Source: an uncultured Clostridium sp. (GTDB taxonomy: Bacteria; Bacillota; Clostridia; TANB77; CAG-508). Taken from it: a stretch of DNA of 64,000 nucleotides. Below the pieces are notes generated by a model, which was not told where the DNA came from, searched no databases, and worked only from the letters and a program-made list of their open reading frames with translations. The stretch is from NCBI GenBank assembly GCA_946639585.1, contig CAMPBS010000002.1:16994-80993 (forward strand), in the 5' to 3' direction. Shown in pieces: positions 2,449-59,007 of this stretch. How positions within the stretch are numbered: the first letter of the stretch is position 1; every line of letters starts with the position of its first letter. Both the position numbers and the translations under genes were made by a program.

Positions 2449-2490
2449 AAGAAAAAATGCAAAAGATTGTACTTTTGCATTTTTTTTATT
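2449..2490. terminator. bidirectional intrinsic terminator
   Basis: A hairpin (aaaaaatgcaaaagattgtacttttgcatttttttt) sits between convergent genes. Confidence 0.6.
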
Positions 2491-3073
2491 CTTTTTTATT
2501 ATTTACTTTTGTTACATCTTTTTTCAAGTCTTTTTTATCAATAAAACCATTATGATATAATGACCAAACATACATAATTAAAGCAAATAGGGTAGATATT
2601 AATGCTAAAGCGTAGCAAATTAAATCTAGGTTTTTCCAGAAACCTTCAACATTAAATTGCCTGAATATTAATGAAAGAACTATTGCTACATAGAATAATA
2701 CTGTTGCAAGTTTGCCATACCATTTACTATAAACTACAACATCTTTTCCATATAGGAATGAAGCTCCAACTATCATTATAAATTCTTTTACTAAAACTAT
2801 AATTAAAATCCATAGTGGAATTATATTTACTAAAGCTAATGAACCTAATGTACATATTTGTGTTAACTTGTCAGCAAGGGGATCCATTAGTTTTCCAAAG
2901 TTGGAAACCAAATTGAATTTTCTTGCTATAAAACCATCAGCAACATCTGTTATTCCAGATATTGTAAAAAATACGAAGGCTAATATAAATTGTTCTGTAA
3001 ATATGAAATATACTATAAATGGTATTAATAAAAATCTTATTATTGTTAATATATTTGGTACATGTTTAAACAT
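2486..3073 (-). CDS. pgsA: CDP-diacylglycerol--glycerol-3-phosphate 3-phosphatidyltransferase
   Basis: It carries the CDP-alcohol phosphatidyltransferase motif DVADGFIARK...G...DPLADK. The AAGGAG RBS supports the ATG at 3073. Confidence 0.85.
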   Translation of the reverse strand: MFKHVPNILTIIRFLLIPFIVYFIFTEQFILAFVFFTISGITDVADGFIARKFNLVSNFGKLMDPLADKLTQICTLGSLALVNIIPLWILIIVLVKEFIMIVGASFLYGKDVVVYSKWYGKLATVLFYVAIVLSLIFRQFNVEGFWKNLDLICYALALISTLFALIMYVWSLYHNGFIDKKDLKKDVTKVNNKKE

Positions 3074-3100
3074 AATTACTCCTTTTGAGTATTCTATTTT

Positions 3101-3228
3101 AATATAATGATTTTTAATTCCTTGGTGTCGCAATCTCCTTATTTAAAAATACTAGTATGTCGATTGCTCCAGTCGCCCTGCGCTTTGCTCCGGTTGGTCG
3201 CTTACGCGGAATTCAAAATCATTATATT
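3101..3228 (+). repeat. GC-rich structured intergenic repeat element, copy 1 of 3
   Basis: The conserved core (ccttggtgtcgcaa...gctccagtcgccctgcgc...ggttggtcgcttacgcgg) is closed by a 21 bp AT-rich inverted repeat specific to this copy. Confidence 0.8.
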
Positions 3229-3233
3229 AAAAT

Positions 3234-5690
3234 TTAAACTACTCGAAATATTAATTCATTTTCTAAATCTACTACAATATTTTGACCATTTTTTAATTCT
3301 GAGCGAAGGATTTTCTCAGATATTTCATCTTCGAGATACTTTTGAATTGCTCTTCTTAATGGTCTAGCTCCAAATTTTACATTTGTGCCTTTTTCTAAAA
3401 TGTATTTTTTTGCGTTTTCTGTTACTTCCATAGTTATATTTTTTTCTTTTAAAGCTTTTTCAGTATCTTGTAACATTAAATCTACTATTTGAATTAGCTC
3501 TGGTTCTGTAAGTGAGTCAAATACAATTGTTTCATCAATTCTATTTAAGAATTCTGGTCTAAATACATCTTTTAAACTATCTAAAATTTTGTTTTTGTTT
3601 ATTATAGATTTTCCACCAAATCCGATTGAATTATTGTTTAAGTTTGATCCTGCATTTGATGTCATTATAATAATTGTATTTGAAAAATTAACTGTATTTC
3701 CCTGACTATCTGTAAGCTTGCCGTCATCAAGCACTTGTAATAAAATATTAAATACATCAGGATGAGCTTTTTCAATTTCGTCAAATAGAATTATAGAGTA
3801 AGGTTTTCTTTTTACCTTTTCAGTTAATTGACCTGCATCATCATATCCTACATAACCTGGAGGAGATCCAATTAGTTTTGCTGTTGAATGACTTTCCATA
3901 TATTCTGACATGTCAACTCTAATTATTGCATCTTCTGAACCAAACATTTCATAAGCTAATGATTTTGCAAGTTCAGTTTTTCCTACACCAGTAGGACCTA
4001 CAAATATAAATGATGGTGGTCTTTTGGTACTTTGAAGCCCAGCTCTGTTCCTTCTAATTGCTCTAGATACAGCATTTACAGCTTCTTCTTGGCCAATTAC
4101 TCTTTTATGAAGGTTAGTTTCTAAGTTTAATAATTTTTGAGTTTCAGCTTCTGTAATCTTTTTAACAGGTATTTTTGTCCAGTTTTCAATTACATTTGCT
4201 ATATCTTGAACTGTAAGGTTTTTTAATTTCATTTTATTATTTATTGAATCTATTTGTTCAATCAATTGACATTCTTTTGCCTTAAGTTCAGCAGCTTTTT
4301 GATAATCTTCTGTTGAATCAGCTGCAACAACTTCTTCTTTCTCGGCTTGTACTTTTTTTAGTTCTTGACGAAGTAATTCTAATGTGAATAAGTCTTTGTT
4401 TTCTAGATTTATTCTTGAACAAGCTTCATCCAAAATGTCGATTGCTTTATCTGGTAAAAATCTGTCATGTATATATTTTTCAGACATTATTACTGTTTGC
4501 TTAATCACATCAGATGAGATTTTTACTTTGTGATATTCTTCATAATATTTTTTTATTCCATTTAGAATACCAACAGAATCTTCAATGTTTGGCTCTTCGA
4601 CCAATACTTGTTGAAATCTTCTTTCTAAGGCTGTGTCTTTTTCAATGTATTTTCTATATTCTTTTAAAGTTGTAGTTCCAATCAATTGAATTTCACCATT
4701 AGATAAGGCGGGTTTTAAAATATTTGCGGCATTCATAGAATGTTCGCCATCTCCGGCACCTATAATATTGTGAATTTCATCTATAACTAAAATAATATTT
4801 CCGTATTCTCGACATTCATCTATAATGCCTTTCATTCTAGCTTCAAATTGACCTCTAAACTGTGTTCCGGCAATAACTGCTGTCATATCTAAAAGGTAAA
4901 CTTCTTTATTTAAAAGCTTTGCAGGTACATTTTGGTTCGCAATTTTTATTGCTAAACCTTGGGCAATTGCAGTTTTTCCAACTCCAGGTTCACCAATTAA
5001 ACAAGGATTATTTTTAGAACGTCTATTTAAGATTTGTGTAATTCTTTGAATTTCCTTATCTCTACCAATTACAATGTCTAATTCATTGTTTTTGGCTTTA
5101 TTTGTTAGGTTTGTACCATATGTATCTAAATATTTTTTCTTTTTAGATGTTTTTGTTTTTTTCTTTTCAACTTTAACTTTTTTTCTTTCTGAACTATTTG
5201 GATTTCCGTTAGCTTGGGCATGCGCTGCTCCATTATTTCCAAACATATTGAAAATTGAACCTAGGGGAATAGCTGCACCGGCAATTTTTGGAGATTCGTC
5301 ATCTTCTTCATCTTCATCCATTCCATCAGCAGAAGGACCAAAAGTGAAGGCTCCCTCAATATTTTGAATATCTTCCAAATTTATATTTTCGGCCAAATCT
5401 TTAAATATTGTTTCAAATTGTTTAGACATATCTTGCATATTTATATTATTTAAATTATTATTACCATTTGGATTAGTATTGTTTACATTTTGGTTTAAAT
5501 CAGGGTTAGTATCTTGTTTTGTACTATCAATTATGTTTTTTTGCCTGTTTAAAACATCTATTACATCAATGCCTCTTTTTTGAGCGCATTCAGCACATAA
5601 ACCTTCCATAGTGCTTTTTCCATTTTCTTGTTTTTCAAAAAAAAGTATAGCTGCATTTTTATTACAATCAGAACATAACATACTTTTCAT
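3234..5690 (-). CDS. clpE: ATP-dependent Clp protease ATP-binding subunit, ClpE-like (N-terminal zinc finger, two AAA+ modules)
   Basis: It has an N-terminal CxxC...CxxC zinc finger, two Walker A motifs (GEPGVGKT and GPTGVGKT) and an Asn-rich linker. Confidence 0.85.
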   Translation of the reverse strand: MKSMLCSDCNKNAAILFFEKQENGKSTMEGLCAECAQKRGIDVIDVLNRQKNIIDSTKQDTNPDLNQNVNNTNPNGNNNLNNINMQDMSKQFETIFKDLAENINLEDIQNIEGAFTFGPSADGMDEDEEDDESPKIAGAAIPLGSIFNMFGNNGAAHAQANGNPNSSERKKVKVEKKKTKTSKKKKYLDTYGTNLTNKAKNNELDIVIGRDKEIQRITQILNRRSKNNPCLIGEPGVGKTAIAQGLAIKIANQNVPAKLLNKEVYLLDMTAVIAGTQFRGQFEARMKGIIDECREYGNIILVIDEIHNIIGAGDGEHSMNAANILKPALSNGEIQLIGTTTLKEYRKYIEKDTALERRFQQVLVEEPNIEDSVGILNGIKKYYEEYHKVKISSDVIKQTVIMSEKYIHDRFLPDKAIDILDEACSRINLENKDLFTLELLRQELKKVQAEKEEVVAADSTEDYQKAAELKAKECQLIEQIDSINNKMKLKNLTVQDIANVIENWTKIPVKKITEAETQKLLNLETNLHKRVIGQEEAVNAVSRAIRRNRAGLQSTKRPPSFIFVGPTGVGKTELAKSLAYEMFGSEDAIIRVDMSEYMESHSTAKLIGSPPGYVGYDDAGQLTEKVKRKPYSIILFDEIEKAHPDVFNILLQVLDDGKLTDSQGNTVNFSNTIIIMTSNAGSNLNNNSIGFGGKSIINKNKILDSLKDVFRPEFLNRIDETIVFDSLTEPELIQIVDLMLQDTEKALKEKNITMEVTENAKKYILEKGTNVKFGARPLRRAIQKYLEDEISEKILRSELKNGQNIVVDLENELIFRVV

Positions 5691-5775
5691 TTCTCCTTAC
5701 TTTTATATAAAATTACAATATATATATTATCTCAAAAACCTTAATAAGTCAAGCTAAACTTTTGAAATAAGCAAT

Positions 5776-5827
5776 CTGGGGACACTTCCCAAAATGTACA
5801 ATTTTTGAACATTTTGGGAAGTGTCCC
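5776..5827. repeat. palindromic element GGGACACTTCCCAAAATG-N-CATTTTGGGAAGTGTCCC (copy A)
   Basis: It is a 20 bp perfect inverted repeat with a 12 nt spacer, lying in the clpE upstream region. Three related copies occur elsewhere in the window. Confidence 0.75.
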
Positions 5828-5928
5828 TAAAATGTTCAAAATTATTTAAATTTATATTGCAATAAAATTTGGTAAATGTTATAATATACTTAGTAAAAAA
5901 AGATTTACAAAAGAAAGAGGGCGAAAGA

Positions 5929-6771
5929 ATGAATGTAACACTGCCAGACAATAAATTGGATAAAAAGACTATAATGGTGTATGCAATAATCATTTTCATA
6001 TGTATTGCATCTATTTTTGCTGTTGTTTGGATGCAATTTTTTGATGGCGAAATTGTTGAAACAGTTGGAACTCTGAAAGGTAAGAGTGACCACGATTATA
6101 ATAATTTAAAAGCGGAATTCAATGAATTACTTACAAATGATATACAGAATTATGATGAAAAATATAATAACAAAAAAGAAAGCTTGACAAATGATATAGT
6201 ATATACTGTTTGTGAGGAAAATGCTTCATCAGGAGATGATTACAATATTCAAGTTAAAATTCCATATATAAATATAAAGAGTAAAACAGTTAAAGAGTAT
6301 AATAATGAAATTAAAAAGACTTTTATTGATAAAGTAGAATCAATTAAAAATACTAAAAATAAACATTCAACATATTCGGTTCAATATGGGGGATATGTAC
6401 AAGATGGAGTTTTATCAGTAGTGATAAAAGCAGAAATACAAGAAGGAACAAAAGCTCAAAGAACAGTAATAAAAACATTTAATTATGATTTAGAAAATAA
6501 CAGTGAAATTTCTTTTAATAAATTACTTCAAACAAAAAAAGTAAGTTTGGAATATGCTCAGGACAGAATCAACAAAGAAGCACAAATAGGTGCCAAAAAA
6601 TCTGAGGATATTAAAGCTATGGGATATGAAATTTATGAAAGAAATCTTGAAGATTCTATGTATAAAGTTGAAAATATTAAAGAATTTTATTTCCATGATG
6701 GAACAATATATGTAATGTTTGCGTACGGAAATACTAAATATACAAATGAATTAGATATAGCTGTAATATAA
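5929..6771 (+). CDS. membrane-anchored protein, DUF4163/DUF3298-like (RsiV/PdaC N-terminal-like)
   Basis: An RBS (agaaagaggg) precedes the ATG at 5929, followed by an N-terminal TM helix. The family assignment rests on overall composition and pattern only. Confidence 0.45.
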   Translation: MNVTLPDNKLDKKTIMVYAIIIFICIASIFAVVWMQFFDGEIVETVGTLKGKSDHDYNNLKAEFNELLTNDIQNYDEKYNNKKESLTNDIVYTVCEENASSGDDYNIQVKIPYINIKSKTVKEYNNEIKKTFIDKVESIKNTKNKHSTYSVQYGGYVQDGVLSVVIKAEIQEGTKAQRTVIKTFNYDLENNSEISFNKLLQTKKVSLEYAQDRINKEAQIGAKKSEDIKAMGYEIYERNLEDSMYKVENIKEFYFHDGTIYVMFAYGNTKYTNELDIAVI

Positions 6772-21395: not shown

Positions 21396-21403
21396 AAAAG
21401 AAG

Positions 21404-21444
21404 GCTGGCGAGCAATCTGGGGACACTTCCCAAATTGCTCGCCA
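21404..21444. repeat. hairpin carrying the CTGGGGACACTTCCCAAA core (copy C)
   Basis: The stem ctggcgagcaat / attgctcgccag encloses the conserved core. It lies downstream of the rluA-family gene. Confidence 0.65.
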
Positions 21445-21468
21445 GTCTTCTCTTCATCTTTATGTCAA

Positions 21469-36406: not shown

Positions 36407-36518
36407 AAAAACAAGCACTTATAACAAAGTGCTTGTTTTTTTAAATTCACAAAAAATTCACAATTATTTTAGCAGATTAACTTGACAAGTGCTAAAAATG
36501 GGTATAATATATAACAAG

Positions 36519-36545
36519 TTAGCAGTCAAATTAAAAGAGTGCTAA
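36519..36545 (+). promoter_or_regulatory. CIRCE operator (HrcA binding site) upstream of hrcA
   Basis: TTAGCAGTC-N9-GAGTGCTAA matches the CIRCE consensus TTAGCACTC-N9-GAGTGCTAA. A TTGACA/TATAAT-like promoter lies upstream at about 36482-36508. Confidence 0.85.
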
Positions 36546-36569: not shown

Positions 36570-37577
36570 ATGCTAGATGATAGAAAAAAGAGAGTTTTGC
36601 AAGCTATTGTAGAGGAATACATAAACACTGCAGAACCAGTAAGTTCAAATGCTTTAACCAAAAGCAATGGTTTAAATTATAGTAGTGCTACAATAAGAAA
36701 CGAGATGGCAGACCTAGAAAAGAAAGGCTATCTAGACAAAACACATACATCATCAGGTAGAATTCCATCTGAAAAAGGTTATAGGTACTATGTAGATGAA
36801 CTTATAAATGATAATGACATAAGTGTAGAAGAAATAAAATACATAAGTTCAAAATTAGAAACAAAAGTAAATGAAATTGAAGATTTAACAAAACTTACGG
36901 CAACAACAATTTCAGAAATAACACATTACACAACATTATCAATTGGACCTAAAAATGATGAGCAATTAATTGAAGAAATTAAATTTGTTCAATTAGGTAC
37001 AAGAATGTTAATGGCAGTAATTTTAACAGATAATGGTTTGGTAAAAGAAACAATTATAAAATTTGATGAAGACATTACAGCAAAACAAGTAGAAACAGTA
37101 AATTATATGTTTAATCAAAAGTTGAAGGGAAAGCCATTAGAAACAATAAAAGGTCCATTAGAAGAATACTTATTTGACGAAATGCAATATAGCGTAAATG
37201 TTATAAAACCTATAATTGAACAGATTAAAAAGGTATTGGCAGAAGATGAAAAAATCTATTTAGAAGGTGCAAATAAGTCTTTCGATTTGCCAGAATTTAA
37301 TAGTTTAGAAGTAGCCAAAAACTTCGTAAATGTGCTAGACACAAAAGAGCTTATGGAAGATATGCTAAACTCAGGATTTGCTCAAGACATAAATGTATAT
37401 ATCGGGCAAGAAAATGAAAAAGATGAGTTAAAAGATTTTAGTGTAGTTACATTTAAACATAAGGTGGGTAACAAAGATTTAGGAACAATAGGAATAATAG
37501 GACCCAAGAGAATGGATTATTCAAAGGTTATTTCTGTAATGAAATACATTAGTAAAAAACTAAATGATAATAACTAA
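36570..37577 (+). CDS. hrcA: heat-inducible transcription repressor HrcA
   Basis: It has the HrcA N-terminal wHTH and lies in the operon context. Confidence 0.9.
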   Translation: MLDDRKKRVLQAIVEEYINTAEPVSSNALTKSNGLNYSSATIRNEMADLEKKGYLDKTHTSSGRIPSEKGYRYYVDELINDNDISVEEIKYISSKLETKVNEIEDLTKLTATTISEITHYTTLSIGPKNDEQLIEEIKFVQLGTRMLMAVILTDNGLVKETIIKFDEDITAKQVETVNYMFNQKLKGKPLETIKGPLEEYLFDEMQYSVNVIKPIIEQIKKVLAEDEKIYLEGANKSFDLPEFNSLEVAKNFVNVLDTKELMEDMLNSGFAQDINVYIGQENEKDELKDFSVVTFKHKVGNKDLGTIGIIGPKRMDYSKVISVMKYISKKLNDNN

Positions 37578-37719
37578 TTTGATATATATTATTTTTTAAA
37601 TCCTTGGTGTCGCAACTTCCAGATTTTAAAATTGACTTATCTGTAAGTTGCTCCAGTCGCCCTGCGCTTCGCTTCGGTTGGTCGCTTACGCGGATTTTAA
37701 AAATAATATATATCAAATT
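37576..37719 (+). repeat. GC-rich structured intergenic repeat element, copy 2 of 3 (between hrcA and grpE)
   Basis: It has the same conserved core as copy 1, closed by a different, perfect 28 bp AT-rich inverted repeat. Confidence 0.8.
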
Positions 37720-37750
37720 ATCAATATAATTTATAGAAAAGGAGAAGAAG

Positions 37751-38251
37751 ATGTCAGAGAATAAAGAAGAAGTTAAAGAAGAAATGAAACAAGAAGAAGT
37801 ACAAACTGAAAAATCAGAGCTAGAGCTTAAACAAGAAGAACTAGACGATATAACAGATAGATATAAAAGAGTGCTAGCAGAGTTTGAAAATTTCAAGAAA
37901 AGAAGTAGCAAGGAAAGAGAAAGTTTATACAGTTCAATCCTTGGAGATGTAGTAGAAGCAATGCTTCCAGTAGTTGATAACTTAGAAAATGCAGCTAAAG
38001 TGGAAACACAAGATGAAAACTACAAAAAAGGTGTTGAAATGGTTTTAAAACAATTTAAAGATGTGCTTCAATCAAAAGGTGTTGAAGAAATCAAAACTGT
38101 TGGAGAAACATTCGACCCAAGCTTACACGAAGCAGTAAGCAGTATTCAAGATGAAAACTTAGGAGAAAAAGAAATTGCACAAGAATACAGAAAGGGCTAC
38201 AAGATTGGTAGTAAAGTTATTAGACATTCTATGGTAGTAGTAGCAAATTAA
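37751..38251 (+). CDS. grpE: nucleotide exchange factor GrpE
   Basis: It shows GrpE family similarity and lies in the operon context. Confidence 0.9.
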   Translation: MSENKEEVKEEMKQEEVQTEKSELELKQEELDDITDRYKRVLAEFENFKKRSSKERESLYSSILGDVVEAMLPVVDNLENAAKVETQDENYKKGVEMVLKQFKDVLQSKGVEEIKTVGETFDPSLHEAVSSIQDENLGEKEIAQEYRKGYKIGSKVIRHSMVVVAN

Positions 38252-46022: not shown

Positions 46023-46096
46023 GCGAACGTAGCCAAATTGGGAAGGCAACTGCTAGGAGTAGTAGAGATGAGAAGGTTCGAATCCTTCCGTTCGCA
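46023..46096 (+). tRNA. tRNA-like sequence with a defective anticodon arm (probable pseudo-tRNA or integration scar)
   Basis: It has an acceptor stem (GCGAACG/CGTTCGC), a canonical T-arm (GAAGG-TTCGAAT-CCTTC) and a D-arm. The anticodon stem (CTGCT/AGTAG) closes only a 6 nt loop. A terminator hairpin follows at 46101-46130. Confidence 0.4.
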
Positions 46097-50444: not shown

Positions 50445-51317
50445 ATGGTAAAAAGAATAATATTAGAGATAATTTTAATTGTAATAACTGTACTTGTGGT
50501 TGTATGTGGATATTTTTTAATATTAGATATTGAAAGCAATGCGCCACAAGAATTACAAGATAAAGTGGAAATTACTACAAAAGAATTTATGGAAAGAAAA
50601 TTGTTTGAAATAGCACCTAAAAATAAAGACAAAAAAAACAATAAAACAATTCTATATTTCCATGGTGGAGCTTATGTGGCAGAAGCAACTGAAGAACATT
50701 GGGATTTTTTGGCCAAACTAGTAAATGACACAAAGGCAACAGTAATAATGCCAGATTATCCATTAACACCTAAATACACATATAAAGATGTGCTAAAAAT
50801 GATAGAACCTGTATATAAAGAAACTATTACAAAAGTAGGAGCTGAAAATCTAATAGTAATGGGAGATTCAGCAGGTGGTGGAATGGCACTTGGCTTATTA
50901 GAAAAACTAAGCCAAAACAATGTAGAAATGCCTGCAAAAACATTCCTAATTTCACCATGGCTAGATACGACAATGTCAAATCCTAAAATATATGAAGTTC
51001 AAAAAAAAGACAAAGACTTGAATAAAGAAAAACTATATTTAGCAGGAGTATCTTATTCAAGAGATTTAAAACAAGAAGAAGACTACTTCGTAAATCCAAT
51101 AAATGGAAAATTTTCTAAATTAAAAAATATAGTTATCTATACTGGAACTTATGATATTCTAAATCCGGATTGCCATTTGCTAAAAGAAAAGGCTGAAAAA
51201 GAAGGTGTAAATATTGAAATTAAAGAATATGAAACTGCTCCACATATTTGGATTGTAAATAATCAAGACGAATTGGCCATTTCGGCTTACAATGATCTAA
51301 TTTCATCATTTAATTAA
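50445..51317 (+). CDS. alpha/beta hydrolase fold-3 esterase/lipase (HSL family)
   Basis: It has an HGGA oxyanion motif and a GDSAGG nucleophile elbow. Confidence 0.75.
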   Translation: MVKRIILEIILIVITVLVVVCGYFLILDIESNAPQELQDKVEITTKEFMERKLFEIAPKNKDKKNNKTILYFHGGAYVAEATEEHWDFLAKLVNDTKATVIMPDYPLTPKYTYKDVLKMIEPVYKETITKVGAENLIVMGDSAGGGMALGLLEKLSQNNVEMPAKTFLISPWLDTTMSNPKIYEVQKKDKDLNKEKLYLAGVSYSRDLKQEEDYFVNPINGKFSKLKNIVIYTGTYDILNPDCHLLKEKAEKEGVNIEIKEYETAPHIWIVNNQDELAISAYNDLISSFN

Positions 51318-51323
51318 AACTAA

Positions 51324-51466
51324 CTATAAATTTATATTATTTTTTATGCCTTGGTGTCGCAACTTCCGGATTTTAAAATACTAGTCTGTAAGTTGCTCCA
51401 GTCGCCCTTCGCTACGCTACGGTTGGTCGCTTATGCGGCATTTCAAAATAATATAAATTTATATAG
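51324..51466 (+). repeat. GC-rich structured intergenic repeat element, copy 3 of 3 (between esterase gene and rlmN)
   Basis: The conserved core carries compensatory changes and is closed by a different AT-rich inverted repeat. Confidence 0.8.
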
Positions 51467-51492: not shown

Positions 51493-52518
51493 ATGAAAAA
51501 TATAAAAGACTATAACTTAGATGCACTAAAGGAAGAAATGAAAAATATAGGTGAAAAGCCATTTAGGGCAGAGCAAATCTTCAAATGGCTATACCAAGAT
51601 AAAGTTACTTCATTTGACGAAATGCTAAATCTTTCTATAGAACTAAGAGAAAAATTAAAACAAAACTATACAATTTGTAATTTTGAAATAATAAGAAAAC
51701 AAGAGTCAGCAGATGGAACAATAAAATATCTATTTGATGTGTTAGATGGAAATGCAATAGAAACAGTTTTAATGAGTTATCATCATGGATATAGCGTATG
51801 TGTATCGACACAAATCGGATGTAAAATGGGATGTAAATTCTGTGCATCAACAGGTATAAAATTTATTAGAAGTTTATCTTCTGGGGAAATTGTTGAACAA
51901 ATAATAAAAATTGAACAAGATACAGGAGTAAGAGTTTCAAATGTAGTATTTATGGGAATTGGAGAACCATTAGATAATTACGAAAATGTTGTCAATGCTA
52001 TAAGAATATTAAATAATCCAAAAGGAATTAATATTGGAGCAAGACACATAAGCGTTTCAACAAGTGGTTTAGTGCCAATGATATATAAATTGGCAGAAGA
52101 AAATATTCAATGTACACTTTCAATATCACTTCATGCAACAACAGATGAAAAGCGTAGTTCAATGATGCCAGTAAACAAGCTTTACAATATAGAACAATTA
52201 TTGCAAGCATGTAAAGATTATATAAAAGTTACAAATAGAAGAGTGTCTTTTGAATATGCTTTGGCAAAAGATAATAATGATAATTTAGAAGATGCTGCAA
52301 GACTAGTAAAATTACTAAAAGGAATGAATTGCCATGTTAATTTAATTCCAATTAACAAAATAGAAAATGGTAAATTTGACAAAAGTACCAATGAAAATAT
52401 AATGAAATTTAGGGATTACCTAAATGACCATGGAATTGTTGCTACAATTAGACGTGAGCTAGGTTCAGATATAGAGGCAGCTTGTGGTCAATTACGTAGG
52501 AAAAATTTAAAAGATTAA
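51493..52518 (+). CDS. rlmN: 23S rRNA (adenine2503-C2)-methyltransferase RlmN (radical SAM)
   Basis: It carries the CKMGCKFCAS cluster. Confidence 0.9.
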   Translation: MKNIKDYNLDALKEEMKNIGEKPFRAEQIFKWLYQDKVTSFDEMLNLSIELREKLKQNYTICNFEIIRKQESADGTIKYLFDVLDGNAIETVLMSYHHGYSVCVSTQIGCKMGCKFCASTGIKFIRSLSSGEIVEQIIKIEQDTGVRVSNVVFMGIGEPLDNYENVVNAIRILNNPKGINIGARHISVSTSGLVPMIYKLAEENIQCTLSISLHATTDEKRSSMMPVNKLYNIEQLLQACKDYIKVTNRRVSFEYALAKDNNDNLEDAARLVKLLKGMNCHVNLIPINKIENGKFDKSTNENIMKFRDYLNDHGIVATIRRELGSDIEAACGQLRRKNLKD

Positions 52519-54450: not shown

Positions 54451-55128
54451 ATGAAAAAGTATGTATGCGAATTTTTAGGTACATTCATTTTGGTACTTTT
54501 AGGATGTGGAAGTGCAGTTTTAGCAGGAGGATACATAGGAGTTGTAGGAGTAGCATTAGCTTTTGGTTTATCAATAGTTGCAATAGCTTACTCAGTAGGT
54601 AGAATATCTGGTGGGCATGTTAATCCAGCTGTATCACTTGCTATGTTAATTAATGGAAAAATATCAGTAAAAGACTTTTGCGGTTATGTAGTAGCACAAA
54701 TTGCTGGTGCTTTTGCAGGAAGTGGAATATTAGCACTAATTGTTAGTATGACAGAATTAAGAAATGCAGGATTAGGGGCAAATGGATTTGGAGATGCATC
54801 TGCTGTAGGATTAACAATGGTAGGAGCATTAATAGTTGAAATAATAGCTACATGTATATTTGTATTAGCTATATTAGGAGTAACACATAATGATAAACTT
54901 TCTTCAAAAGCAGGTATTGTTATAGGATTAGTACTTGCATTAGTTCATTTAGTATGTATTCCATTAACAGGAACTTCTGTAAATCCAGCAAGAAGCTTAG
55001 CTCCAGCAGTTATACTTGGAGGAGAAGCTTTATCACAAGTTTGGGTATTTATAGTTGGACCACTTGTTGGTGCAGTAATTGCAGGTTTATTATGGAAATT
55101 CCTAGCAAAGAACGAAGAAGAGATATAA
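54451..55128 (+). CDS. aqpZ: aquaporin (MIP family)
   Basis: It has two NPA boxes (SGGHVNPAVS and NPARS). Confidence 0.9.
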   Translation: MKKYVCEFLGTFILVLLGCGSAVLAGGYIGVVGVALAFGLSIVAIAYSVGRISGGHVNPAVSLAMLINGKISVKDFCGYVVAQIAGAFAGSGILALIVSMTELRNAGLGANGFGDASAVGLTMVGALIVEIIATCIFVLAILGVTHNDKLSSKAGIVIGLVLALVHLVCIPLTGTSVNPARSLAPAVILGGEALSQVWVFIVGPLVGAVIAGLLWKFLAKNEEEI

Positions 55129-55188
55129 TAAACAAATCAAATGAAAATATTTAAAAAGTTAAAATGTTTAAACATTTTAACTTTTTTT
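54983..55188 (+). repeat. 206 bp direct repeat, left copy (aqpZ 3' end plus terminator)
   Basis: It is identical to 57732-57937. Confidence 0.9.
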
Positions 55189-55290
55189 AGTTAGTATAAA
55201 CTTTTTTGTAGAAAAATTCAAAAAAATGACAAGTACACTTGACAAAAAACATAATATATGATATTTATAAAATATAGAAGAGGTGGTTTT

Positions 55291-57731: not shown

Positions 57732-57937
57732 ATCCAGCAAGAAGCTTAGCTCCAGCAGTTATACTTGGAGGAGAAGCTTTATCACAAGTTTGGGTATTTA
57801 TAGTTGGACCACTTGTTGGTGCAGTAATTGCAGGTTTATTATGGAAATTCCTAGCAAAGAACGAAGAAGAGATATAATAAACAAATCAAATGAAAATATT
57901 TAAAAAGTTAAAATGTTTAAACATTTTAACTTTTTTT
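57732..57937 (+). repeat. 206 bp direct repeat, right copy (orphan aqpZ 3' fragment plus terminator)
   Basis: It is identical to 54983-55188. Confidence 0.9.
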
Positions 57938-58004
57938 TATTATATCTTTATTTTTCTTTGAAAATATGGTAAAATATACAAGATTTTTAAAAATGGAGAA
58001 GAAA

Positions 58005-58933: not shown

Positions 58934-59007
58934 GCGGGTATAGTTTAATGGTAGAATCCCATGCTTCCGACCTGGTGGTGAGGGTTCGATTCCCTCTACC
59001 CGCTCCA
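58934..59007 (+). tRNA. tRNA-Gly (anticodon UCC) with encoded CCA
   Basis: GCGGGUA acceptor stem, GUUUAAUGGUAGAAU D-arm, CUUCCGA anticodon loop (UCC), GAGGG-UUCGAUU-CCCUC T-arm and 3' CCA are all present. Confidence 0.85.

Follow-up and report, generated by a model that had tools for sequence, protein, structure and literature searches.

A probable MITE-like hairpin repeat between hrcA and grpE in the heat-shock operon of an uncultured rumen Clostridium

The spacer between hrcA and grpE in the heat-shock operon of an uncultured Clostridium sp. contains a 146-nt hairpin that belongs to a family of interspersed repeats. The operon was studied within a 64,000-nt stretch of contig CAMPBS010000002.1 (assembly GCA_946639585.1), here called the window; all coordinates are those of the window unless a locus is named, and L followed by a number (e.g., L120) designates a comparison locus. 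Over 6.5 kb, the contig of the window is identical to NODE_224 of ENA ERZ12302818. The hairpin, at positions 37575-37720, is the second of three copies of the repeat in the window (copy 2). It is missing from the same spacer of the closest relatives, and it has no features of a terminator. [quoted passage not shown] Because it was inserted in one lineage only, we regard it as a hitchhiker in the heat-shock operon and not as a dedicated control element. An earlier note on this DNA had placed a repeat copy inside an operon controlled by HrcA through the controlling inverted repeat of chaperone expression (CIRCE), and the hairpin, the CIRCE operator and the empty sites described below bear this out.

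Results

Copy 2 lies on the + strand (37575..37720), its orientation being set by the core, and it is supported by the inverted repeat, the covariance model and the folds. It is an inverted repeat of two 29-nt AT-rich arms with 88 nt between them. The left arm (37575..37603, +) holds the hrcA stop codon TAA (37575-37577), and the right arm (37692..37720, +) is the sole remnant in a deletion derivative, L141. The arms are 97% complementary, with one T:T mismatch or bulge in a stem that the earlier note had described as perfect over ~28 bp. The window has two occurrences of the arm pattern, compared to 0.00 expected by chance. The folding energy of the RNA is -46.9 kcal/mol for the + strand (z = -7.2; none of 200 shuffles did as well) and -47.9 kcal/mol for the - strand, and the DNA fold reaches -29.2 kcal/mol (z = -7.1). 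The covariance-model score of copy 2 is 161.5 bits.

The conserved core (TTGGTGTCGC...CTTACGC; 37604..37691, +) is composed of blocks common to all subtypes of the family and has a GC content of 62%, compared to 28% for the genome. It contains an inner hairpin, P2 (GCAACTT...AAGTTGC; 37612..37651, +), which has a variable tip and shows compensatory changes, and a putative helix, P3 (CCAGTCG / CGGTTGG, with two G-U pairs; 37653..37681, +), which is predicted by folding to enclose a 3-bp mini-hairpin. In all three window copies the core reads TTGGTGTCGCAAY, then a hairpin, then RTTGCTCCAGTCGCCCTNCGCT..CGGTTGGTCGCTTACGC; the cores are near-identical and the arms differ. The window copies, 138 to 146 bp long, have core indels relative to each other and no common reading frame, and a single shadow open reading frame (ORF) is all that overlaps the element. 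No Rfam family matched the element when the window was scanned at the gathering score, permissive thresholds yielded only chance microRNA hairpin matches at the element (E of ~1), and no family matched on loci with subtype A, B and C copies. Comparison with L120, L121, L122 and L141 indicated that the 14 nt directly 3' of the hairpin (TCAATATAATTTAT; 37721..37734, +) are also missing from the empty alleles. These 14 nt may be part of the insertion event, but this assignment is uncertain.

The insertion is polymorphic among related genomes. The closest HrcA relatives, L120 (99% identity) and L121 (98%), have a 16-nt hrcA-grpE spacer (AGAAAGGAAGAAAAAA) without the element, and their HrcA ends in …DENK*. 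With the insert, the spacer is 173 nt instead of 16 nt and the HrcA C terminus reads …KLNDNN*, compared to …KLNDENK* in the empty alleles. Relatives with HrcA identities of 90 to 96% have a spacer of 17 to 21 nt or an unrelated spacer of 105 nt, and in ~80 further metagenome relatives the spacer is mostly 11 to 55 nt. The orthologous operons thus include many with the empty site that the earlier note had proposed to look for, and a lack of empty sites, which it had named as refuting its idea, was not what the comparison showed. The same copy with the same arms is found in the hrcA-grpE spacer of L122 (HrcA identity, 97%), and all contigs with an identical GrpE that reach into the spacer carry the element. 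Several contigs end at the element, as is expected of repeats. In L141 (98.8%), the stop codon context of the filled type is followed by the right arm alone, and the left arm and core are lost. As L141 has deleted most of it, the element is dispensable at this site.

Copies 1 and 3 also occupy sites that are empty or incomplete elsewhere. The copy 3 site is empty in L133-L135, L136, L138, L139 and L109-L115. In the RGIG2630 lineage this site holds the 12-bp palindrome TATAAATTTATA once, while in the window TATAAATTTATA stands on both sides of the insert, as the outer arms; in more distant relatives the hydrolase gene and rlmN, which flank the site, abut. At the copy 1 site, only the two arms are present in the sister lineage L221, where they form a coreless 44-bp palindrome; exactly CC-core-GG plus one AATT sets it apart from the filled site. 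Deletion derivatives are common in the family. L141, L096 and L104 are unambiguous examples, with end points at short repeats in the arms, and the L221 and RGIG2630 states are probably deletion derivatives too. The element arrived in one lineage and is eroding in others.

Two side observations concern the same spacer. L158 (HrcA identity, 83%) has a different 151-nt hairpin in the hrcA-grpE spacer (1776-1928 of that locus; arms ATTTGAAAAATAATC.../...GATTTTTTTCAAAAT) with another core, indicating that hairpin repeats have landed in this spacer more than once. In the lineage with the 105-nt spacer, which is free of the core, one divergent member of the family is located two genes upstream of hrcA. 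The grpE-dnaK spacer is variable as well: some strains, including some whose GrpE is identical to that of the window, have there an extra ORF of 151 to 198 amino acids (aa) without a Pfam match (L124 3556-4038, L127, L129, L131, L116 11534-12130 and L121 4364-4819), which the window does not have.

The earlier note had counted two copies of the repeat in the window, and three were found. Copy 1 (3096..3233, +) has on one side the stop of a clp-type ATPase gene (3234-5690, -) and on the other side pgsA (2486-3073, -), and copy 3 (51325..51463, +) is located between an alpha/beta-hydrolase gene (50445-51317) and rlmN (51493-52518). Copy 1 had been described as lying on the opposite strand, antisense to its flanking genes. 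The antisense position holds, since the clp-type ATPase and pgsA-type genes are on the - strand, but all three copies have the same, + strand orientation.

A 20-base core pattern matched 52 sites in bacterial and archaeal contigs with one genome per species. Fifty of these sites are genuine and come from six metagenome-assembled genomes (MAGs) of rumen Clostridia; the other two, in a Bradyrhizobium and in a bacterium from an upflow anaerobic sludge blanket (UASB), are chance matches. Among the MAGs of the family are RGIG2630 (GCA_017430135.1), RGIG8360, UBA9784, RUG13298 and two metaWRAP bins. None of the 52 loci contains hrcA, grpE or the other genes that flank the window copies. A covariance model built on 15 type A copies gave 70 matches in the 765 kb searched, but the DNA of other hrcA relatives (289 kb, human-gut lineages included) contained no match. 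Members of the family came solely from a few uncultured rumen Clostridia of low GC content related to Clostridium sp. CAG:440, whose RlmN shares 85% identity with the RlmN of the window. A 16-base core block had 56 matches in viral contigs, all in unrelated high-GC sequence; BLAST of phage and plasmid collections gave no match to the element, and a full-text literature search with the core strings returned only one irrelevant primer. The element family is previously undescribed, small (~140 to 250 bp), noncoding, hairpin forming and interspersed.

How long the arms are and how the tip of P2 is built distinguishes the subtypes of the family. Type A, at ~140 nt, comprises the copies of the window, RGIG2630 and RGIG8360; types B, C and C2 are 170 to 250 nt long. 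Forty-eight copies have genes called on either side, and the hairpin of these usually starts 0 to 25 nt 3' of the upstream stop codon. Codirectional genes flank 43 of the 48, with 17 copies in sense and 26 in antisense orientation. The bias differs between subtypes, type A being sense at ~2:1 and types B and C antisense at ~4:1. The suggestion in the earlier note that the function may be independent of orientation is in keeping with this use of both orientations across the family.

Some variants were noted besides the subtypes. More divergent members were detected by BLAST or the covariance model only (L118 8663-8828 and L119 1-151; L079 1141-1311; L057 2225-2396; and L073 4216-4435). Some subtype B copies (L058, L062, L066, L077, L085 and L090) have an extra hairpin of ~50 nt (TGCTGCCCATTGTTAAGGCTCTGCCTGTTACAATGGCAGTATGCAG...) in the 3' domain, between CGGTT and the last core block, which forms a further nesting layer. 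The subtype C2 shell (GTTAC..CACAGC...GTGATTAATATATA) surrounds a completely different core in L088 790-1040 and a truncated one in L096 6700-6930, and it is coreless in L104 6805-6860. A second hairpin in the window (12426-12523) has 26-nt AT-rich arms, 96% complementary, around an unrelated 46-nt core (CTCTCCCAACTATTAGGC...CACAGCGTT). Its arms share the motif GATATATTATTTTT with those of copy 2, and this motif is overrepresented in the window (12 occurrences versus 2.1 expected).

Types B, C and C2 terminate in GTTAC...GTAAC. The terminal inverted repeats are 19 to 29 nt long and 96 to 100% complementary in the three window copies and reach up to 38 nt elsewhere. The best-preserved B and C copies are flanked by 8-bp direct repeats, identical at 8/8 positions in L081 (ATCTAGTA) and at 7/8 in L094, L095, L062 and L086. 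Overall, this signal is modest: the mean match is 5.62, compared to 5.30 ± 0.11 in permuted flanks, and nine copies have flank matches of at least 7/8, compared to 4.5 in permutations. The GTTAC...GTAAC ends together with the 8-bp duplications would be the signature of a transposase-mobilized MITE. A search for target duplications at a fixed offset is confounded by the AT-rich palindromic arms.

The arms, P2 and the rest of the core are conserved to different degrees. Among the 15 type A copies, the mean pairwise identity is 64 to 68% in the arms, 88% in the P2 stem and 96 to 97% in two parts of the core, its 5' junction and its 3' domain. The type A arms of different copies are homologous over ~20 nt, and the same core is found in four arm contexts (A, B, C and C2); cores and arms, or shells, look interchangeable. 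In the arms and P2 of the 15 copies, 95.6% of the cells are paired, and 17 pairs, with 58 cells, have changed on both sides, a result that was reached in 0 of 500 shuffles. Across all subtypes (63 distinct sequences), 374 cells have changed on both sides, and indels in one arm are matched in the other between copies. The arm pairing is 97% Watson-Crick, with 7 G:T and 15 A:C mismatches, and a test of the arms in the mRNA sense showed no excess of wobble pairs (8 versus 9). With near-pure Watson-Crick pairing and no wobble excess, the arms look like a maintained DNA palindrome, not like a helix selected as RNA. They also look as though they were maintained in concert, for example by templated correction within the hairpin. 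In P2, U-A pairs interchange with C-G and G-C pairs with U-A, the length of the tip varies between subtypes, and L073 also has a compensatory pair change. P3 is invariant and hence without covariation support, but in the divergent copy L057 2225-2396 the mini-hairpin inside it reads GCC/GGC instead of GCG/CGC, a compensatory change.

The operon around copy 2 is of the HrcA-regulated type. A sigma-70-type promoter (TTGACA-17-TAATAT; 36482..36510, +) precedes a CIRCE operator (36519..36545, +) and hrcA (36570..37577, +; PF01628). The operator matches the pattern TTAGCACTC-N9-GAGTGCTAA with one mismatch, where no match is expected by chance, and it is the only CIRCE in the window; the hairpin element shows no similarity to it. 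The stop codon of hrcA (37575-37577) forms the first 3 bases of the left arm and therefore sits in the foot of the 28-bp, -47 kcal/mol stem. The start of grpE (37751..38251, +; PF01025) is 30 nt 3' of the right arm, its GGAG ribosome-binding site (37741-37744) is preserved 3' of the hairpin, and dnaK and dnaJ come after grpE, as identified with Pfam. The 16-nt stop-to-start spacing of the empty alleles is an arrangement typical of translational coupling.

Copy 2 has none of the properties of a terminator. The terminator scan made no call at the element, and no U tract lies 3' of the stem, whose A-U-rich foot gives way to TCAATATAATTT. The promoter scan detected nothing beyond chance in or 3' of the element, and a second CIRCE for grpE-dnaK-dnaJ is absent from the window. 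Since there are no terminator features and neither a CIRCE nor an above-chance promoter downstream, transcription of the operon must pass through the element to reach the chaperone genes, which are essential. The attenuator role that the earlier note had suggested, or a role as a terminator, is for the same reasons unlikely. Effects on processing, on RNA stability or on the decoupling of hrcA from grpE, which it had also raised, are plausible by analogy with other systems.

Discussion

These results are best explained by a mobile element that inserted as a unit, arms and core together, at the very end of hrcA in one lineage. This event stretched the 16-nt spacer to 173 nt, altered the final residues of HrcA and moved the stop codon into the foot of the stem. 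The spread of the family would depend on a transposase supplied in trans, and copies would later decay by deletions across the hairpin. The element is not specific to this operon, and nothing connects it with heat shock, since copies also stand between unrelated genes (clp/pgsA, hydrolase/rlmN and ~50 other sites).

Several observations weigh against a MITE-like element. The core is more conserved than the arms, which is the opposite of what typical MITEs show. Arms that diverge and yet stay paired, with matched indels, are not predicted by the ordinary decay of terminal inverted repeats. For type A, the subtype of the window, no target duplication is demonstrable, and no pair of ends kilobases apart around a transposase gene, as in an autonomous element, was detected in the loci collected or in an island of the window described below. 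The arms-only state of L221 fits a deletion but would also fit the insertion of a core into an older palindrome. Finally, orthologous copies are far more conserved than their flanks. Between the window and L122, 144/146 positions of the element are identical, compared to 95/1005 differing positions in hrcA, 51/498 in grpE and 9/30 in the spacer; similarly, L062 and L066 share 248/250 positions of the element and ~94% of the flanks, and L058 and L090 share 234/236 positions and ~96%. This difference suggests purifying selection or another constraint, or a recent lateral spread of filled alleles. Merging of strains in metagenome assembly is another possible source of the high identity between orthologues.

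The GC-rich core may be more than filling. We hold it to be rather improbable that the core is either a tiny structured module, mobile in its own right, that lands at the apices of AT-rich DNA hairpins and so creates palindromes nested in palindromes, with exchangeable cores and shells, or a functional RNA or DNA structure under strong purifying selection. For a selected core speaks the finding that orthologous copies differ by ~1%, compared to ~10% for hrcA and grpE and ~30% for the adjacent noncoding spacer.

The mobile-module idea, worked out as nested elements, assumes that the 88-nt core inserts at the dyad center of preexisting AT-rich palindromes or shell MITEs, the arms being target or shell. 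The 44-bp palindrome of L221, which is the copy 1 site minus the core, would be such a target, and so would the single TATAAATTTATA at the copy 3 site of the RGIG2630 lineage, which the window has on both sides of the insert. The occurrence of one core in four arm contexts, of the C2 shell with a different core (L088 790-1040) or coreless (L104), and of similar arms around another core at 12426-12523 are further points in its favor. However, in most copies the core is flanked by inverted and not by direct repeats, so there is no consistent target duplication. The missing part also varies by site, being the core, the core with the inner arms, or the left arm with the core, which is more simply explained by deletions with different end points, and L141, L096 and L104 are unambiguous deletion derivatives. 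Beyond L221, no coreless shells related to type A arms were found in the ~1 Mb searched, and the type A arms of different copies are themselves homologous over ~20 nt. We consider nesting improbable. A variant in which the outer arms are duplicated palindromic targets, derived from the empty copy 3 site, was considered and dropped as the main model, as the asymmetric L141 remnant and the homologous arms agree better with the deletion of a unit element.

An equally improbable alternative is a functional structured RNA kept by selection, either as a cis module in operon transcripts or as a family of small RNA or ribozyme genes, with spread being secondary. Paralogous cores, GC rich in a low-GC genome, have kept 96 to 97% identity despite drift in the arms, and orthologous copies have diverged far less than the adjoining coding DNA. 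P2 covaries, and the mini-hairpin has its compensatory change in the divergent copy. In addition, G-U pairs are conserved in both P2 and P3; read from the opposite strand, they would be A-C mismatches. On the other hand, the element is used in both orientations to transcription (17 sense, 26 antisense), with types B and C ~4:1 antisense, and sister lineages have lost it by deletion at each of the three window sites. P3 lacks covariation, the arms lack a wobble excess, and neither an Rfam match nor a signature of a promoter or terminator was found. The covariation of P2 could equally well be explained by maintenance of a DNA palindrome.

Much less probable is a REPIN-type element, i.e., paired repetitive extragenic palindromic (REP) sequences that form a hairpin and are mobilized via single-stranded DNA by a REP-associated tyrosine (RAYT, Y1) transposase. 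The long hairpin with arms changing in concert, the strand bias of subtypes B and C and a Y1_Tnp gene (PF01797) that adjoins hrcA in L122 would agree with it, but another repeat (GGGACACTT...CCCAAAA hairpins) flanks this gene, and neither a GTAG nor a CGTC tag is conserved in the aligned arms. Moreover, it is the nonpalindromic core, not the arms, that is conserved, and Y1 transposition would not generate the 8-bp target duplications of types B and C. An attenuator or terminator dedicated to heat-shock operon regulation, as the very stable stem between the repressor gene and the chaperone genes might suggest, is contradicted by the empty sites in nearly all relatives' operons and is very unlikely. 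Further points against it are the deletion in L141, identical elements in unrelated operons, the absence of a U tract and a terminator call and the absence of a second CIRCE or above-chance promoter for grpE-dnaK-dnaJ.

For the MITE-like element, the effects on the host may be sketched as follows. The operon transcript would read through the element. The stem would abolish the tight translational coupling of hrcA and grpE that relatives have, and it would offer a site for a double-strand-specific RNase or a barrier to exonucleases, so that the hrcA and grpE-dnaK-dnaJ segments of the mRNA would differ in stability. We put this forward tentatively, and not as heat-shock-specific regulation. It draws on analogies with Correia elements, REP sequences and the intergenic stem-loops of Clostridium cellulolyticum.

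Correia elements (Correia repeat enclosed elements [CREE] or Neisseria miniature insertion sequences [NEMIS]) of Neisseria are similar in being noncoding, ~100 to 150 bp long, with inverted-repeat ends of ~26 bp and a conserved core, and in having many dispersed copies that frequently lie within transcription units and are polymorphic for insertion among strains. Once transcribed, the Correia hairpin is bound or cut by RNase III, and it alters the expression of neighboring genes (PMC2649163, PMC10969869). There is, however, no sequence similarity to the family described here. The Correia ends are conserved in sequence and TA is duplicated, whereas here the arms are 64 to 68% identical, conservation peaks in the core and an 8-bp duplication is seen in related subtypes. 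No consistent TA target duplication was found at the copies of the family.

REP sequences and bacterial interspersed mosaic elements (BIMEs) of enterobacteria, and the REPIN/RAYT systems, are likewise extragenic palindromes located just 3' of stop codons between cotranscribed genes. REPs stabilize the upstream mRNA and, when near the stop codon, affect translation. The arms of REPINs evolve in concert, as do the arms here. The REPs themselves measure 20 to 40 bp, carry a GTAG or CGTC tag, are without a nonpalindromic core and go together with RAYT genes, and the present family was found to have none of these features (for an overview of REP elements, see PMC3733652).

Among Firmicutes, the pneumococcal RUP, BOX and SPRITE repeats are small and structured, are transcribed with neighboring genes and are in some cases modular (PMC3049150, PMC2229807). 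All of these, and bcr1 below, differ from the present family in sequence, hosts and target duplications (TA for RUP), none has the architecture of AT-rich arms and a GC-rich core, and no sequence match was found. The bcr1 element of the Bacillus cereus group is a further Gram-positive MITE-like repeat of this sort. In Clostridium operons, stable intergenic hairpins set the ratio of upstream to downstream transcript (C. cellulolyticum; PMC4423207). Unlike the element, these processing and stabilization stem-loops are local, nonrepeated and immobile. By this analogy, selective RNA processing and stabilization would be the most likely way in which the element affects its host.

The hairpin in the heat-shock operon would thus represent an accident of mobile DNA and not conserved regulation, and its annotation as an attenuator is unwarranted. 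The family is a new structured repeat for uncultured rumen Clostridia, a group for which the reviews consulted describe no such elements. Close strains with and without the insert provide a natural experiment on the consequences of a 146-nt stem for translational coupling and for the stability of mRNA segments. The concerted arms, the core common to all subtypes, the interchangeable cores and shells and the conserved orthologues could point to an unusual mode of copying or maintaining hairpin DNA.

Other features of the window

An island of 2.5 kb (55.2 to 57.7 kb) is flanked by 211-bp direct repeats (54983-55193 and 57732-57942) that are 99% identical and comprise the 3' end of a MIP gene of the aquaporin type together with a palindromic site resembling a terminator. 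It encodes a DUF6442 protein, a helix-turn-helix (HTH_3) protein and three unknown proteins and is missing in relatives such as L136. The island was considered as a source of the transposase, a role that was rejected because no transposase is encoded there; no integrase was found in it either.

A REP-like family based on GGGACACTTCCC...GGGAAGTGTCCC hairpins is present in the window (5772-5834, 17634-17671 and 21396-21454) and in L122 (560-640 and 1490-1540). In L122, sequences similar to these flank the Y1_Tnp gene, which encodes 283 aa (IS200-like, possibly a RAYT) and is located just upstream of hrcA. The ORF at 5869-6771, beside the REP-like hairpins at 5.8 kb, was tried as a Y1 transposase and ruled out, as it is not Y1. 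By Rfam, a glmS ribozyme/riboswitch (17353-17506, -; 83 bits) is the only structured cis-regulatory RNA in the window, and tRNAs are located at 46023-46096 and 58934-59004.

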